From the NCBI RefSeq assembly GCF_003334405.1, contig NZ_QOWM01000002.1: a stretch of 64,000 nt of DNA. One strand, written 5' to 3'. Position numbers and translations under genes: made by a program. Numbering within the stretch: position 1 is the stretch's first letter; each line of letters opens with the position of its first letter. Below, one piece after another: positions 24,124 to 41,873 of the stretch. The notes beneath the pieces were generated by a model, which was not told the origin of the DNA, ran no database searches, and saw nothing but the letters and a program-made list of their open reading frames with translations. The DNA is from Escherichia coli (GTDB lineage Bacteria; Pseudomonadota; Gammaproteobacteria; Enterobacterales; Enterobacteriaceae).

Positions 24124-26019
<1,896 letters not shown>

Positions 26020-26030
26020 AGGAAAGAACA

Positions 26031-26056
26031 TTGCCCGGTCAGGATGGCCGGGCAAA
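26031..26056. terminator. Hairpin between convergent parE and ygiN
   Basis: ttgcccgg-tcaggatgg-ccgggcaa stem-loop. Confidence 0.5.
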
Positions 26057-26066
26057 CAAGGCAGGA

Positions 26067-26381
26067 TTAAATCCCTGGCTGCAGAATACGGATATTCATC
26101 TCCAGCACGTCACCTTTTACGGCTTCGCTATACGCCTTCATGTGCGGGGTTTGCAGATGCGCTTCAAGATGCGCGATGCTTTCCCACTGCTCAATCATCA
26201 CGATAGAATCCGGTGCCATAGACTGGAAACTCACGCCAGCTGCGCAATCCACCATTGGCGCATAGCCGTGGCAACCTTCTTCTTTCAGTACGGTTGGAAC
26301 GATTTTAGCAAACTGATCCAATACCGCCTGACGGTGATGTTGACCAGGACGAGTACGGATTTCTGCGATTACGGTAAGCAT
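26067..26381 (-). CDS. ygiN: Quinol monooxygenase (ABM domain)
   Basis: 104-aa ORF MLTVIAEIRTRPGQHHRQAVLDQF... Confidence 0.9.
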   Translation of the reverse strand: MLTVIAEIRTRPGQHHRQAVLDQFAKIVPTVLKEEGCHGYAPMVDCAAGVSFQSMAPDSIVMIEQWESIAHLEAHLQTPHMKAYSEAVKGDVLEMNIRILQPGI

Positions 26382-26411
26382 GGTTAACTCCTTCTAAAGC
26401 CTGAGCTCTAG

Positions 26412-26993
26412 TTAACCAAAAATTTCCACAAGATGCTTGCGATATTCTTCAGTATAGCGGGGAACATCAGGCATTTTTATCACGTCATTAGCGATAAATG
26501 TCGGCAGCGGTTCCATACCGAGGAATTGGTTTGCTTTATGGAACGGCAGATACACACCGTCAACGCCAACGCCGTGGAAGAACTGATCTTTTTCGGTGAA
26601 GGCTTCCATTGGTGCGTTCCAGGTCAGAGAAAGCATATATTTTTTGCCCTGTACCAGGCCGCCGGAACCGTATTTTTTCGACGGATCTTTGCGGGTACGA
26701 CCATCGCTGGCATACAGCGTCCCGTGACCTTCGGTGAATACATCATCAATGTATTTTTTCACTGTCCACGGCGCGCCCATCCACCAGCCTGGCATCTGCC
26801 AGATCACCACATCAGCCCAGAGAAAGTTTTGTACTTCCGCTTTGACATCGTAGTCGCTGTCGGCGCGAACGATGCGGACATCATGCCCAAGGTCGCGCAG
26901 TGTGCCATCCGCGACTTCGGTCAGGGTGTCGTTCAGTTGACCATTGGAGTGGGCGAATTTTTTCGCGCCGTTGATAATCAGGATGTTGCTCAT
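26412..26993 (-). CDS. mdaB: NADPH:quinone oxidoreductase MdaB (flavodoxin-like fold)
   Basis: 193-aa ORF MSNILIINGAKKFAHSNGQLNDTL... Confidence 0.9.
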   Translation of the reverse strand: MSNILIINGAKKFAHSNGQLNDTLTEVADGTLRDLGHDVRIVRADSDYDVKAEVQNFLWADVVIWQMPGWWMGAPWTVKKYIDDVFTEGHGTLYASDGRTRKDPSKKYGSGGLVQGKKYMLSLTWNAPMEAFTEKDQFFHGVGVDGVYLPFHKANQFLGMEPLPTFIANDVIKMPDVPRYTEEYRKHLVEIFG

Positions 26994-27311
26994 TTTTTAA
27001 CCTCAAGGTGAGACGTTTGCCGACTATAGTACGTCACAGAGCGGTACGGTGAAATTAGCAAAATGTGCAAAGTCTTTTGCAAATTTAGCAAAAGTCTGAT
27101 CTTACTCTGACTCACCGATGCAGGATAAATATTTTCTGAAAATGACAATACTGATAGCCATTCCTCATAATTCTTACTCGCACCGGAATAATTTACACGT
27201 TTGGTTCGGTTTTTTTGGGGATTGAAAATATGGCTTTGAATAAGTAAAAGATGAAAGTATCAACGTGTCATGTTGATAATTATAAATGGATTTTTATGAG
27301 CGTACTGATAT

Positions 27312-27644
27312 ATGTTAAAGCAGAAAATTAAAACAATATTTGAAGCATTGCTATATATAATGCTTACTTATTGGTTAATAGATTCTTTTTTTGCTTTCAA
27401 TAAGTATGACTGGATGCTTGAGTCGGGAGGAAATATTTGCAGTATACCTTCCGTTTCAGGCGAAGATCGTATATTGCAAGCAATGATTGCAGCATTTTTT
27501 CTTCTTACGCCACTTATTATTCTTATCTTAAGAAAACTCTTTATGCGGGAAATGTTCGAGTTTTGGGTATATGTATTCTCGCTCGGTATTTGTCTGGTTT
27601 GTGGTTGGTGGCTTTTTTGGGGACGGTTTATATTTTGCTATTAG
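27312..27644 (+). CDS. ygiZ: Small inner membrane protein YgiZ, AT-rich gene
   Basis: 110-aa ORF with 3-4 hydrophobic segments; markedly AT-rich coding sequence and AT-rich upstream region. Confidence 0.7.
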   Translation: MLKQKIKTIFEALLYIMLTYWLIDSFFAFNKYDWMLESGGNICSIPSVSGEDRILQAMIAAFFLLTPLIILILRKLFMREMFEFWVYVFSLGICLVCGWWLFWGRFIFCY

Positions 27645-27689
27645 TAAAATCTATGAGAGTCGTTTTAACGGCTCTCATAGACAGAGAAG

Positions 27690-29039
27690 TTACCAGCTTA
27701 CCTTCGCCTCAAATCCACCTTGTTCCGCATTCCCAAATTCAACATTCATGCCATGCAATTTGGCGATTCGCTGGACAATCGATAGCCCAAGCCCGCTGCC
27801 GGTAGCGGTTTGTCCGGGTGGGCGATAGAAGCGTTCGCCAATTCGCGCCAGTGCCTCTGGTGTCACACCGGGGCCGTTATCCCTCACGATGAAATTATCA
27901 GCATTCAGCGTGACGTCTACCACGCTGCCCTGTGGACTGTAGCGCACGGCGTTATCCAGCAAATTTCGCACCAACAAACTTAGCAATAGCGGTTGCCCGG
28001 TGCGTTTGATGCTGTGGGCATTGAGTGTCAGTCGCACGTCAATTTTCGCCTGCTGCGCCGTGTGGTAAATATCCATCACCGACGATTGCAGGAGATCTTC
28101 AAGCGGGATCTCCGCGACGTCCTGAAGGTTATCCAGTGAGTCCAGCCGCGATAGCGTGAGCAGTTGATCAACCAGACGAGTAGCGCGATCGATCCCGGAA
28201 TGTAATTGGAGCAGTGCTTTTTTCCGCGCCTGCGGATCATCGTCAGAGAGCTGCGCAACTTCGGTTTGCACTTTCAGCGCCGTTAACGGGCTACGAAGTT
28301 CGTGAGCTGCGTCGGAGGTAAAGCGTCGTTCACGAACCATCATCGCATGTGTGCGGGCGAACAGTTGATTTAGCGACTCAACCAGTGGCCGCACTTCGCT
28401 GGGTACGCCAGTCGCGTTTAGTGGTTTTTCCGAGTCAGGGTCACGCATACGTAGTGCCAGCGCCAGTTTGTTCAGCGGCGCGAGTTCACGACCCAGTAGT
28501 ACCATCATGATGATTAACATAATCGGCAGTGCGACCAGCCACGGGATCAATTGCCCGGCAACAATCGCCAGCGCCATGTCTTCACGGTATTCCCATTCCT
28601 GGCCAACAACGATGCGATATTTGCCATCAGGTGAGGTCATCCAGACAAAACGCCAAGGATCGTCTTCACCGACCAGTTGCCCGTCAGCAAAACCTTCCCG
28701 TTGATAGCTATAGGGAATATCTTCTCCGTTATCGCCATCATTAAGGACCATTCTGCCGTCGTGGGTAAAGATGGCAAAGGTCAGCGCATCGTCATCAACA
28801 TGACCGTGTTTTAATCTATTTGGCGTCTGTGCCATGCGATCCGCCGCGTTGATTTCGTTGAGATCGAGCGTACTTAACCGCTTGGCAAACAGCATCAGTT
28901 GGGTGTCGAACAATTCATCGACGTTATCCGTTGTTTGTTTCCAGGCGACAAAGCTGGAAAGCAGCCAGGTCACCGAGGCCAGAATTAAAAAGATTAGCGT
29001 CAGCCTGACGCGCAGACTAAGACGTTGGGTAAATTTCAT
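27690..29039 (-). CDS. qseC: Sensor histidine kinase QseC
   Basis: 449-aa ORF; two TM segments, HisKA H-box (AAHELRSPL), HATPase_c G-boxes. Confidence 0.9.
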
Positions 29040-29695
29040 TTCTCACCTAATGTGTAACCAATACCATGCACGGTACGAATAAAATCACTACCGAGTTTGC
29101 GTCGCAGATGATGCACATGCACTTCAACGGCATTACTGGTGACCTCTTCGTCCCAGGTATACAGTTTCTCTTCAATCAGTTTGCGCGGCAGTACCCGACC
29201 AGCGTTACGCATCAGTAATTCCAGCAGGGCAAATTCTTTTGGTTTCAGTGTTAAGGGTTCGCCAGCCAGCGTGGCGATACGTTTGCCGGGGTCGAGCATG
29301 ACGTTACCGTGGCGCAGCTCGTTGCTGGCCTGGCCGTTGGTTCGGCGCATCAGAGCTTCCAGCCTGGCGGCGACTTCTATCAACGCAAAAGGTTTACACA
29401 GATAATCGTCAGCTCCCAGACGCAGCCCTTCTACACGTTCCGCCAGCGCATCGCGCGCGGTCAGGATCAGTACCGGCTCACGCTGACCTTTTTCTCGCCA
29501 TTCGCGCAAAATATCGCGACCATCCATGCCTGGTAAGGTTAAATCCAGGATCACCGCATCATAAGGTGCGCTATAAAGCGCCTCTTTTCCCTGACGACCT
29601 TGTGTAAACCAGTCGACGCTAAAACCCATTTTACTAAGGCCCGTTTTGATGCCGTCGCCAATCAGCATGTCATCTTCTATCAGTAAAATTCGCAT
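29036..29695 (-). CDS. qseB: OmpR-family response regulator QseB
   Basis: 219-aa [18 protein letters not shown]..., receiver + winged-helix domains; 4-bp ATGA overlap with qseC. Confidence 0.9.
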
Positions 29696-30978: not shown

Positions 30979-31275
30979 ATGGAAAAACGCACACCACATA
31001 CACGTTTGAGTCAGGTTAAAAAACTTGTCAATGCCGGGCAAGTTCGTACAACACGTAGTGCCCTGTTAAATGCAGATGAGTTAGGTTTGGATTTTGATGG
31101 TATGTGTAATGTTATCATTGGATTATCAGAGAGCGACTTTTATAAAAGCATGACCACCTACTCTGATCATACTATCTGGCAGGATGTTTACAGACCCAGG
31201 CTTGTTACAGGCCAGGTTTATCTTAAAATTACGGTAATTCATGACGTACTGATCGTCTCGTTTAAGGAGAAGTAA
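30979..31275 (+). CDS. mqsR: Type II toxin MqsR (mRNA interferase)
   Basis: 98-aa ORF MEKRTPHTRLSQVKKLVNAGQVRTTRSALLNADELGLDF... Confidence 0.95.
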   Translation: MEKRTPHTRLSQVKKLVNAGQVRTTRSALLNADELGLDFDGMCNVIIGLSESDFYKSMTTYSDHTIWQDVYRPRLVTGQVYLKITVIHDVLIVSFKEK

Positions 31276-31276
31276 T

Positions 31277-31672
31277 ATGAAATGTCCGGTTTGCCACCAG
31301 GGAGAAATGGTTTCTGGCATTAAAGATATTCCATACACCTTCCGTGGACGAAAAACAGTATTGAAAGGTATCCACGGTTTATATTGTGTCCATTGCGAAG
31401 AGAGCATCATGAATAAAGAAGAGTCAGATGCTTTCATGGCGCAAGTAAAGGCATTTCGGGCTTCGGTGAATGCCGAAACAGTGGCACCTGAATTTATAGT
31501 GAAGGTTCGAAAAAAGCTCTCTCTTACCCAAAAAGAGGCAAGCGAAATTTTTGGGGGAGGTGTAAATGCGTTTTCGCGTTACGAAAAAGGCAATGCCCAA
31601 CCTCATCCTTCCACAATCAAACTTTTACGTGTTCTGGATAAGCATCCAGAACTATTGAATGAAATCCGTTAA
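31277..31672 (+). CDS. mqsA: Antitoxin and transcriptional regulator MqsA (Zn-binding N-domain + Xre HTH)
   Basis: 131-aa ORF MKCPVCHQGEMVSG...CVHCEES... with two CxxC pairs; 1-bp gap after mqsR. Confidence 0.95.
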   Translation: MKCPVCHQGEMVSGIKDIPYTFRGRKTVLKGIHGLYCVHCEESIMNKEESDAFMAQVKAFRASVNAETVAPEFIVKVRKKLSLTQKEASEIFGGGVNAFSRYEKGNAQPHPSTIKLLRVLDKHPELLNEIR

Positions 31673-40638: not shown

Positions 40639-40896
40639 TCATTCTGCGTACATACGCAAGCAGCGCAGGCAATCAAAATAGTCCTGAGCATCAAGACGCG
40701 TATTGGCTCTGTTAGCTTCGGATTTGGCAGCATAGATTTGTGGGCGTAGTGCTTTCATATCCTGCTCAAGCCGGGCGATTTTGGCATTTAATGTTTGCAC
40801 ATTGCTCGCCAGCTGATTGACCTTTTGCTCATTGACGCAGCCACTGAGCAAGCAGGTTGCCAGAACAACAGCTCCCACGGTGAAAATCGTTTTCAT
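40639..40896 (-). CDS. yqhH: Lpp-like outer membrane lipoprotein YqhH
   Basis: 85-aa ORF with lipobox LLSGC and Lpp-like heptad segment ([17 protein letters not shown]). Confidence 0.85.
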
Positions 40897-40946
40897 ATAG
40901 TGTTCCCTTTTATTTATTGTTCCGGCTAATTGTTATTTAATTCAGC

Positions 40947-41873
40947 TCATTGCTTTAATCTGGCGGCAGTTTTTGCCTCAATCTGCTTAAGTAGGCTGCC
41001 GCTGTTCGGGCGGATAAAATCAGCGATTTCCCACTTGCCTTCGCGCCGCTGTAAAACCAGTTCTTGCTCTTCGTTGTTGCCATTGGTCAGCGTAAAACGA
41101 ACATGAATGCGGGCGGAATCGGCGGTTTTCTCCAGGACTCGAATTTCATCAACGCGTGAAAATAGCGACTCTTCGCCAAAACAGATCGGATTGTCGTAAA
41201 TAAATTGCCGTTCTATTTGCATATCTTCATCGGGATTATTGGCCGTCTTGAAGGTGGTTTTATAGAAGGCATTAACCGCCTGGCGGTAAGAGTCGGAAAC
41301 CACCCACGTCCACGGCCAGCTATAATCAGCAATATGTTCAAAGAGTTCGGCAACAAAGGCTTCCGGCTGTTCTTTTTGCAACGAAGCTAAAGCGGCCAGC
41401 GTTTTTTCATTCTCGCTATTAACTGCTTGTAAGACGCTGCCATGATTGCTGACAATATCGTCAATGACCCAACGACCATTTTCCGCCACCATTTTCAGTG
41501 TCTGCGTGGTCTTTTCTTTATCATCTTTAAAGATACGAAAGCGCACAACGGCATCGGCATGATCGGCGTCAGTTTGGGTTATCGCAACGCTTTCTAGCAC
41601 CAGATCGCCAAAATCCTGACAATCACAAACCGGATCATAATCCAGCCAGCCAATATTGCCCGGCAGCGTAAGATTGTCGTTCAGGGTAAGCGCCTGTTGA
41701 ATACGCGCAGAAGTTATCGCCCGCTCTCCGGTTTCACCAAAATAAGGGGCAGTGGCATCTGATTTATAGTTCTGATAAATATGCCGGACTGTTTGTTCTA
41801 CGGTCTGTGAGGGGGGCTGTGCGTGTACGGTAAAACTTGCCAGGGCTGCTAAAAACAGAAGTATTATTTTCAT
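40947..41873 (-). CDS. yqhG: DUF3828 family periplasmic protein YqhG
   Basis: 308-aa ORF with signal peptide MKIILLFLAALASFTVHA; conserved position upstream of yqhH. Confidence 0.8.
   Translation of the reverse strand: MKIILLFLAALASFTVHAQPPSQTVEQTVRHIYQNYKSDATAPYFGETGERAITSARIQQALTLNDNLTLPGNIGWLDYDPVCDCQDFGDLVLESVAITQTDADHADAVVRFRIFKDDKEKTTQTLKMVAENGRWVIDDIVSNHGSVLQAVNSENEKTLAALASLQKEQPEAFVAELFEHIADYSWPWTWVVSDSYRQAVNAFYKTTFKTANNPDEDMQIERQFIYDNPICFGEESLFSRVDEIRVLEKTADSARIHVRFTLTNGNNEEQELVLQRREGKWEIADFIRPNSGSLLKQIEAKTAARLKQ

Follow-up and report, generated by a model that had tools for sequence, protein, structure and literature searches.

This account concerns ygiZ, a small gene standing between the core genes mdaB and qseC in a 64,000-nucleotide stretch of Escherichia coli DNA (contig NZ_QOWM01000002.1 of assembly GCF_003334405.1), the whole of which is called the window below. 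In published studies the gene product is called an uncharacterised inner-membrane protein. ygiZ is oriented divergently from mdaB and convergently with qseC; the original prediction, made from the letters of the window, had placed it between two convergent or divergent core genes. When the site is compared with other E. coli genomes, the segment around ygiZ appears as the probable remnant of a cassette hcp-X-ygiZ related to type VI secretion systems (T6SS), where X designates a gene that precedes ygiZ in other strains. The features at the site are the following.

26412-26993, minus strand: mdaB (NADPH:quinone oxidoreductase), core flank outside the island; open reading frame (ORF) and RefSeq annotation, 50.5% G+C
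27052-27097, no strand: conserved mdaB promoter block with the motifs of the original prediction, outside the island; repeats, a marbox-like match and cross-genus conservation
27098-27689, plus strand: whole variable segment relative to the empty site, probable hcp-X-ygiZ remnant; O157:H7 and a dog isolate join 27097 to 27690 via 5 bp
27098-27170, plus strand: left end of the island, lying upstream of hcp in full-cassette strains and about 96% identical to them (blastn against Nissle and O157:H7; alignment)
27171-27301, plus strand: 131-bp stretch specific to ygiZ-only strains, standing in place of 1,260 bp with hcp and X
27312-27644, plus strand: ygiZ; ORF, 34.2% G+C
27650-27681, no strand: perfect-stem hairpin (inverted repeat with a 14-bp stem) between the convergent ygiZ and qseC, without a T-run
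27690-29039, minus strand: qseC (sensor kinase), core flank outside the island; ORF and RefSeq annotation, 53.0% G+C

The region 27000-27690 had been proposed as an AT-rich insert, and a sliding-window calculation bears out its composition. It contains 35.2% G+C, the window as a whole 50.6% (z = -3.08 among windows of 691 bp, 0.42% of which are equally low), and it ranks as the second-lowest G+C region of the window. The spacer between mdaB and ygiZ (26994-27311) has 35.2% G+C, and the G+C content at third codon positions (GC3) of ygiZ, 0.333, is the minimum among the 35 annotated genes of the window (mean 0.54, z -2.8). The proposed extent had to be corrected on the left side, where 27000-27097 proved to be conserved mdaB promoter DNA; the variable segment is 27098-27689.

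The site was examined in 5,426 complete E. coli genomes by megablast with positions 26900-27750, and three states were found. In the empty state, represented by O157:H7 and the dog isolate, mdaB and qseC are 109 bp apart and ygiZ is missing (about 826 genomes, ~15%). The ygiZ-only state, which is the K-12 form and is also found in strains S10 and TUM1586, accounts for about 3,340 genomes (~62%). In the third state, comprising 1,262 genomes among which are Nissle 1917, sequence type 131 (ST131) and avian pathogenic E. coli (APEC) O2:K1, ygiZ is preceded by hcp (160 amino acids) and X (236 amino acids). Altogether 4,600 of the 5,426 genomes carry ygiZ, and in 4,582 of these the ORF covers at least 80% of the query. 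Universal presence with core-like codon usage, which would have spoken against the original prediction, was not found.

Homology between K-12 and Nissle stops 72 bp upstream of hcp (27170) and returns at the stop codon of X (27302). Beyond that point the K-12 and the cassette-linked Nissle ygiZ, which occupy the same locus, are 94% identical in nucleotides and 91% in amino acids. No significant remnant of hcp or X was detected in the intervening 131-bp stretch by blastn and tblastn, at the DNA or the protein level, and no homologue of X or Hcp occurs in any frame of the 64-kb window. The 131-bp stretch is also present in other ygiZ-only lineages in a strongly diverged form, so that the ygiZ-only haplotype must be old. 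An integrase, a tRNA gene, a clear target-site duplication at the island borders and mobility genes were not found at the site; the search for target-site duplications or terminal inverted repeats at 27098/27689 yielded no more than a weak microhomology, TTAC, and an imperfect match (11 of 13), neither of which was relied on.

Synonymous divergence (dS) between E. coli and Citrobacter, where the cassette occupies the same site, amounts to 1.1-1.2 for ygiZ and to 0.85-0.98 and 1.7-1.9 for the flanking mdaB and qseC. As the dS of ygiZ about equals that of the flanks, the island must have occupied the site since about the time when the genera separated. Horizontal acquisition, as originally proposed, therefore stands insofar as the DNA is accessory and its composition and codon usage are not core-like; a recent acquisition is not supported. 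In Salmonella Typhimurium the spacer between preB and mdaB is 106 bp (PMC2653508), nearly the size of the O157:H7 empty site. The history of the site may have been an ancient insertion kept as a long-lived polymorphism, as the flank-like dS would suggest, or repeated loss or allele replacement; the short Salmonella spacer speaks for the empty site as the ancestral state.

Homologues of X with 54-74% identity, all annotated as hypothetical, were found in Citrobacter, Pseudocitrobacter, Pectobacterium, Erwinia, Serratia, Chania and Buttiauxella. Fifteen X loci were retrieved (from Chania, a Serratia conjugative plasmid, Pectobacterium, two Buttiauxella species, Citrobacter and Pseudocitrobacter), and all 15 have Hcp, X and DUF2645 in this order on a single strand, separated by gaps of -4 to +16 bp, DUF2645 being the Pfam family of YgiZ. 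For 11 cassettes the gap between X and DUF2645 is -4 to +6 bp. In Citrobacter and Pseudocitrobacter the cassette also lies at the mdaB-qseC site, in Chania it adjoins integrase and insertion sequence (IS) genes, and in Serratia it is located on the conjugative plasmid. Its G+C content is 34-39% in Escherichia, Citrobacter, Pseudocitrobacter, Pectobacterium and Buttiauxella and 49-51% in Chania and in the plasmid-borne Serratia form; a low G+C content is no inherent property of the family.

The three genes diverge at different rates. Over 11 cassettes the mean pairwise identity is 0.66 for Hcp, 0.65 for X and 0.40 for DUF2645, the fastest diverging of the three, and the identities of X and DUF2645 are more closely correlated (r = 0.94) than those of Hcp and X (0.78). 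Serratia sp. H1w carries two cassettes (L017 4507-6058 and L019 2904-4448), in which Hcp is 93%, X 67% and DUF2645 39% identical. Judged from the sequences, this pattern fits what is expected for specificity-determining toxin-antidote pairs on a conserved carrier. Decay of the cassette is asymmetric as well: DUF2645 remains alone in the about 3,340 E. coli genomes and in one further locus (L010), and it is intact in Citrobacter strains with a split X or a truncated Hcp. L010, in an enterobacterial metagenome bin, is the only DUF2645 context among those inspected outside E. coli that has neither Hcp nor X nearby. At 4242-4885 of this locus a lone DUF2645 gene overlaps the end of a gene for an ABM-family monooxygenase, the family of ygiN, by 4 bp; it is located downstream of an HxlR regulator and near guaBA.

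Several further contexts tie the pair of X and DUF2645 to type VI secretion. The Hcp of the cassette is a genuine TssD (TIGR03344, E 2e-58). In one locus (L028) X is fused to PAAR and is directly followed by a DUF2645 gene. A pair consisting of an X-like protein (228 amino acids) and a DUF2645-like protein (95 amino acids) is encoded in a T6SS core cluster of E. coli, with tssL and tssM on either side (L029 5001-5971). In Salmonella (L031 3766-4736) such a pair heads an array with Rap1a/Tae4, a Tge2-like glucosaminidase with Tgi2, and Tlde1, and in Paracidovorax citrulli (L030) it stands beside an Rhs array. The downstream proteins of these four loci (94-100 amino acids) match the DUF2645 profile with E values from 2e-10 to 4e-4 and have in common a Glu/Lys-Tyr motif just after the first helix. 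The X-like/DUF2645-like pair is not among the effectors and candidates of Salmonella pathogenicity island 6 (SPI-6) in the accessible portions of two catalogues (PMC10469887, PMC12288458). No literature linking ygiZ or DUF2645 with T6SS was found in a search that left most subscription journals outside, so an earlier description is possible. An identity of the island with the APEC hcp2B locus was considered and rejected; that operon is hcp2B-vgrG2 within T6SS2 (PMC5874247).

X is predicted to have a lysozyme-like fold with a catalytic-type Glu-Ser and conserved motifs downstream of it. Its invariant columns are E82-S83 in AWIESGG, G114 and Q119 in TSFGS..MQI, and Y188-N189-R190-G191, which we take to be the Glu-Ser, Gly-Leu-Met-Gln and Ala-Tyr-Asn-x-Gly motifs of family 1 lytic transglycosylases. 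A Foldseek search of the AlphaFold database (AFDB) located the fold of X in proteins annotated as "Transglycosylase SLT domain-containing" and in the C-termini of Rhs proteins. By profile search a protein (P0207) was reached whose alignment with X (hhalign 99.5%, E 2e-22) covers the same region as its Pfam SLT domain (residues 165-297, E 4.6e-5), making the link to SLT a transitive one. The SLT-type motifs suggest that X would act as a lytic transglycosylase rather than as a hydrolase. The N-terminus of X (MKSDLTIKNRYCTIPQAKFRKWDE) has no hydrophobic core and no signal peptide, and a lipobox is absent.

YgiZ consists of 110 amino acids and matches Pfam DUF2645 (PF10840) over residues 13-109 with an E value of 1.3e-9. 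The family is small, comprising 28 clusters at 50% identity in a set of 1.84 billion representative proteins. The AlphaFold2 model of YgiZ has three long helices (2-27, 50-77 and 81-109; predicted local distance difference test score, pLDDT, 82), which together with three hydrophobic segments agrees with the small polytopic membrane protein originally proposed. Positive charges are found at the N-terminus and in the loop that joins helices 2 and 3, and the protein is therefore predicted to have its N-terminus inside and its C-terminus (ending in WGRFIFCY) outside. In the predicted periplasmic loop the K-12 protein differs from the cassette-linked allele by one residue.

Comparisons of ygiZ-only alleles among each other and with cassette-linked alleles gave ratios of nonsynonymous to synonymous divergence (dN/dS) of 0.21-0.33, computed among the ygiZ-only alleles from 9-13 substitutions; the exception was the pair S10/TUM1586, with a ratio of 0.75 from four differences. 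For K-12 and other ygiZ-only alleles the values are 0.24-0.33, and for mdaB and qseC 0-0.15. ygiZ is evolving under purifying selection. Truncated forms of YgiZ are common in Shigella (P0027, 79 amino acids).

The promoter of ygiZ has been mapped in K-12 and has BglJ-RcsB as an activator; the gene is nearly silent when BglJ is not expressed, putative targets of the same regulator include rhsA and rhsB, and the loci assayed there for H-NS and StpA exclude ygiZ (PMC3950696). Presumably the 131-bp stretch 27171-27301 carries this promoter. Promoter-like hexamers occur at 27142-27171 and 27251-27280 in a scan that performed no better than on shuffled sequences. Within the stretch, some 30 bp upstream of the start codon of ygiZ, is a near-perfect palindrome at 27255-27281 (AAGTATCAACGTG / CATGTTGATAATT), a possible regulator site that has decayed in the TUM1586-type haplotype. 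Elsewhere in the window the promoter of yqhG-yqhH (40639-41873) is also reported as activated by BglJ-RcsB (PMC3950696), and the GC3 of yqhG is somewhat low (0.47).

Allelic relationship and synteny, the fold and motifs predicted for X, linkage to genes of the T6SS and purifying selection on ygiZ were all computed here, and on these grounds 27098-27689 is best read as a decayed hcp-X-ygiZ auxiliary cassette of a T6SS, with ygiZ as an orphan immunity gene against the SLT-like toxin X; the probability of this reading is put at about 0.72. As in cargo-type effector-immunity modules, X is linked to genes for structural or spike proteins, is followed by a small gene on the same strand and has a predicted toxic domain without a Sec or Tat signal. 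As is the case for orphan immunity genes, ygiZ has a paired homologue elsewhere and no effector within the window, and it is intact, promoter-driven and under purifying selection. According to the proposed mechanism an attacker would load the signal-less X (about 236 amino acids with a divergent SLT domain) onto the T6SS via the adjacent Hcp, or via PAAR where the two are fused. The system would fire X into a rival's periplasm, and there it would cut the glycan strands of peptidoglycan. YgiZ, and DUF2645 proteins in general, would be the cognate immunity proteins, three-helix proteins of the inner membrane with a cytoplasmic N-terminus, whose conserved acidic loop (residues 30-55 in YgiZ, among them the invariant Tyr32 and Cys43) would be exposed to the periplasm together with the C-terminal Cys109, where they would neutralise X. 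The K-12 lineage would have exchanged the 1,260 bp with hcp and X for the 131 bp now present, and kept ygiZ under its own BglJ-RcsB-activated promoter. E. coli K-12 and B have no T6SS (PMC6730261), and for this reason ygiZ would be an orphan immunity gene in K-12, its only plausible use being protection from relatives armed with X, such as B2 strains.

A number of observations speak against this interpretation. The main oddity is the nature of the inhibitor. Tsi3 and Tgi2, which confer immunity to T6SS glycoside hydrolases, are soluble periplasmic proteins or lipoproteins, and a polytopic protein exposing only about 25 loop residues would be an unusual inhibitor. Direct searches with X in Pfam, NCBIfam and PDB yielded no informative match, whether the query was the single sequence or a profile, and the assignment of X as an enzyme is built from a medium-confidence model, motifs and one transitive homologue. 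The copy that lies between tssL and tssM might help to assemble the T6SS instead of attacking rivals. In Buttiauxella gaviniae ATCC 51604 (L018 5719-6100) DUF2645 contains a frameshift and an in-frame stop while the frame of X and its catalytic-type Glu are intact; this is the sole case found of a broken DUF2645 beside an intact X, and it could be a draft-assembly error or a tolerated loss in a strain with a silent T6SS. The phenotypes described for ygiZ, an increased tolerance to sabinene upon overexpression and an increased transformation efficiency upon deletion, have no obvious tie to T6SS, and the small number of substitutions behind the dN/dS ratios among ygiZ-only alleles has to be counted here as well.

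The main rival explanation, considered improbable, is that DUF2645 is a holin-like exporter or anchor which moves X into the periplasm of the producing cell itself, for T6SS assembly or for protein release. MltE and TagX are models for such a local opening of the wall in T6SS assembly. The position of the X-like/DUF2645-like pair between tssL and tssM would suit this role, as would the missing signal peptide of X, and a protein of about 100 amino acids with three helices beside a muralytic enzyme resembles a phage lysis pair. In phage holin-endolysin pairs, however, the holin gene is upstream of the lysin gene and the C-terminus of the holin is charged and cytoplasmic, whereas here the gene of the enzyme comes first and YgiZ is predicted to have a cytoplasmic N-terminus and an uncharged C-terminus on the outside, unlike class I holins such as lambda S105. 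PAAR-X fusions, and Rhs proteins that end in an X-like domain, have the architecture of delivered toxins, and the Salmonella pair is found within an array of effector-immunity pairs. The fast divergence of DUF2645 in correlation with X is the behaviour of a specificity pair. In addition DUF2645 stands alone in about 62% of E. coli genomes, and because K-12 has no T6SS and carries ygiZ alone, an export partner would have no cargo there.

Equally unlikely to be the full account is the view contained in the original prediction, that the segment is generic AT-rich, horizontally acquired and H-NS-silenced DNA encoding a small membrane protein without an assigned role. It draws on the low G+C content together with the lowest GC3 in the window, on the presence/absence polymorphism within E. 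coli, and on the location of the cassette on a plasmid or beside integrase and IS genes in other genera. It is true as far as it reaches but leaves the gene unexplained: the strict synteny of Hcp, X and DUF2645 and the links to PAAR and T6SS clusters point to a specific function, the comparison with Citrobacter shows that the island is not recent, and the cassettes of Chania and of the Serratia plasmid are not AT-rich. Least probable is that the K-12 ygiZ is a decaying functionless relic, or a general envelope-stress gene of the Rcs regulon unrelated to T6SS toxins, as might be supposed from the lacking T6SS of K-12, the near silence of the gene without BglJ, the sabinene and transformation phenotypes and the truncations in Shigella, since dN/dS is not neutral in all but one comparison, the ORF is preserved in nearly all carriers, the periplasmic loop is almost unchanged from the cassette-linked allele, and a stress role would be compatible with immunity.

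Compared with known systems, the proposed orphan immunity gene and its toxin show a mixture of familiar and unfamiliar traits. With Tge1/Tse3-Tsi3 of Pseudomonas aeruginosa and Tge2-Tgi2 of P. protegens and Salmonella SPI-6, X has the fold in common without sequence similarity, and no match of X to Tse3 or Tge2 was obtained among PDB sequences. The Tge effectors are hydrolases whereas the motifs of X are of the SLT type (Glu-Ser ... Gln ... Tyr-Asn-x-Gly), and the immunity proteins of the Tge pairs are soluble periplasmic proteins or lipoproteins whereas YgiZ is predicted to be an integral membrane protein with three helices. From Slt70, MltE and MltC, family 1 enzymes with the Pfam SLT domain (PF01464), X differs by lacking a direct match to this domain (none at E <= 10 for X or any of 25 relatives), a signal peptide and a lipobox; because of its linkage to Hcp or PAAR it looks like a weapon and not like a housekeeping autolysin. 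Orphan T6SS immunity genes are described from Vibrio cholerae and E. coli (PMC6730261). Like them ygiZ has no effector and is near-identical to a paired immunity gene in conspecific strains; unlike them it is located outside any T6SS cluster, in a host without T6SS, has its own regulated promoter and is the majority allele (about 62%). The Hcp-linked cargo islands and Hcp-ET fusions of E. coli, as far as they are covered in PMC6730261 (after Ma et al. 2017), likewise consist of an orphan hcp with a toxin-immunity module downstream, but in Hcp-ET the toxin is a C-terminal extension of Hcp directed against nucleic acids whereas X is a separate gene with a predicted target in the cell wall.

The immunity reading would provide ygiZ, an uncharacterised gene of K-12, and the family DUF2645 with a specific and testable function, and would place X, for which no Pfam or NCBIfam model exists, among the predicted toxins, with family members in a T6SS cluster of E. 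coli and in the SPI-6-like effector array of Salmonella. It is possible, with the odds against it, that X and DUF2645 represent a widespread family of T6SS effectors and immunity proteins that has so far escaped description, with a lytic transglycosylase as the toxin and a polytopic protein of the inner membrane neutralising it. In this case X would act at the membrane face of the wall, on nascent glycan strands or lipid II-linked material, or immunity would take another route than the simple plugging of an active site. It is a prediction of the proposed mechanism that the laboratory strains of E. coli used as hosts in toxicity tests already carry the antidote, which may mask the toxicity of X in assays with K-12 or BL21. 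The orphan ygiZ of most commensal and laboratory E. coli would then decide on survival against X-armed B2 strains such as Nissle 1917 and ST131, and the three alleles (armed, immune only and naive) would make it possible to study in natural gut populations how immunity genes outlive the weapons.

The repeated TAGCAAAA and TGCAAA motifs, which had been suggested as mar/sox-type boxes for mdaB, are present, and they are located outside the insert. The block containing them has a 12-nucleotide direct repeat, whose copies are AAATTAGCAAAA (27052-27063) and AATTTAGCAAAA (27082-27093), and an inverted repeat with the arms AGTCTTTTGCAAA (27071-27083) and TTAGCAAAAGTCT (27085-27097). Its core of about 25 bp, GCAAAATGTGCAAAGTCTTTTGC, is identical in Escherichia, Citrobacter, Pseudocitrobacter and an empty-site strain. 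Since the motifs are kept in empty-site strains and are invariant across three genera, they belong to the promoter of mdaB. There is one match to the marbox consensus with 2 mismatches at 27053-27071 on the minus strand, 60-78 bp upstream of the mdaB ATG; this degenerate 20-bp consensus is not enriched in comparison to shuffled sequences (125 matches found, 140 expected). mdaB has been cited as a member of the mar regulon (PMC2989944), and in Salmonella it is activated by PreA/QseB (PMC2653508). A role of the motifs as mar/sox-type boxes is plausible but unproven, and binding of QseB at the block is an equally open alternative.

The hairpin at 27650-27681 has a predicted free energy of -22.1 kcal/mol (z -5.3), and none of 200 shuffled sequences was as stable. 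It is part of the island, being present in Nissle and not at the empty site. It is probably a transcript-end or insulator structure; a scan for intrinsic terminators reported none, this hairpin included, and an Rfam scan of 26300-28300 (E <= 1) gave no match.

The neighbouring genes are listed below; the whole region from parE to qseB is 99.9% identical to annotated K-12-type E. coli chromosomes.

24127-26019, plus strand: parE
26067-26381, minus strand: ygiN
29036-29695, minus strand: qseB

Some other parts of the window deserve mention. Further stretches with low G+C content (34-41%), at about 8300-16300, correspond to genes for cryptic fimbriae (yqiI, yqiH, an usher gene and ygiL), and the annotation of a K-12-like reference strain has an IS2 element immediately next to the usher gene. 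The next most AT-rich coding stretch is the toxin-antitoxin pair mqsR-mqsA (30979-31672; GC3 0.38 and 0.36). This pair is missing in Nissle 1917 and in the dog isolate, where ygiV is directly followed by ygiS or parC, and thus constitutes a second presence/absence island, 3.3 kb from ygiZ. The junction between parE and ygiN (26020-26066) is variable too. In Nissle, TUM11352, O157:H7 and the dog isolate a MurR/RpiR regulator replaces parE before ygiN, with an iron-siderophore ATP-binding cassette (ABC) transporter cluster beyond the regulator in those loci which are long enough to show that far, and strain S10 has a major facilitator superfamily (MFS) transporter at this junction.

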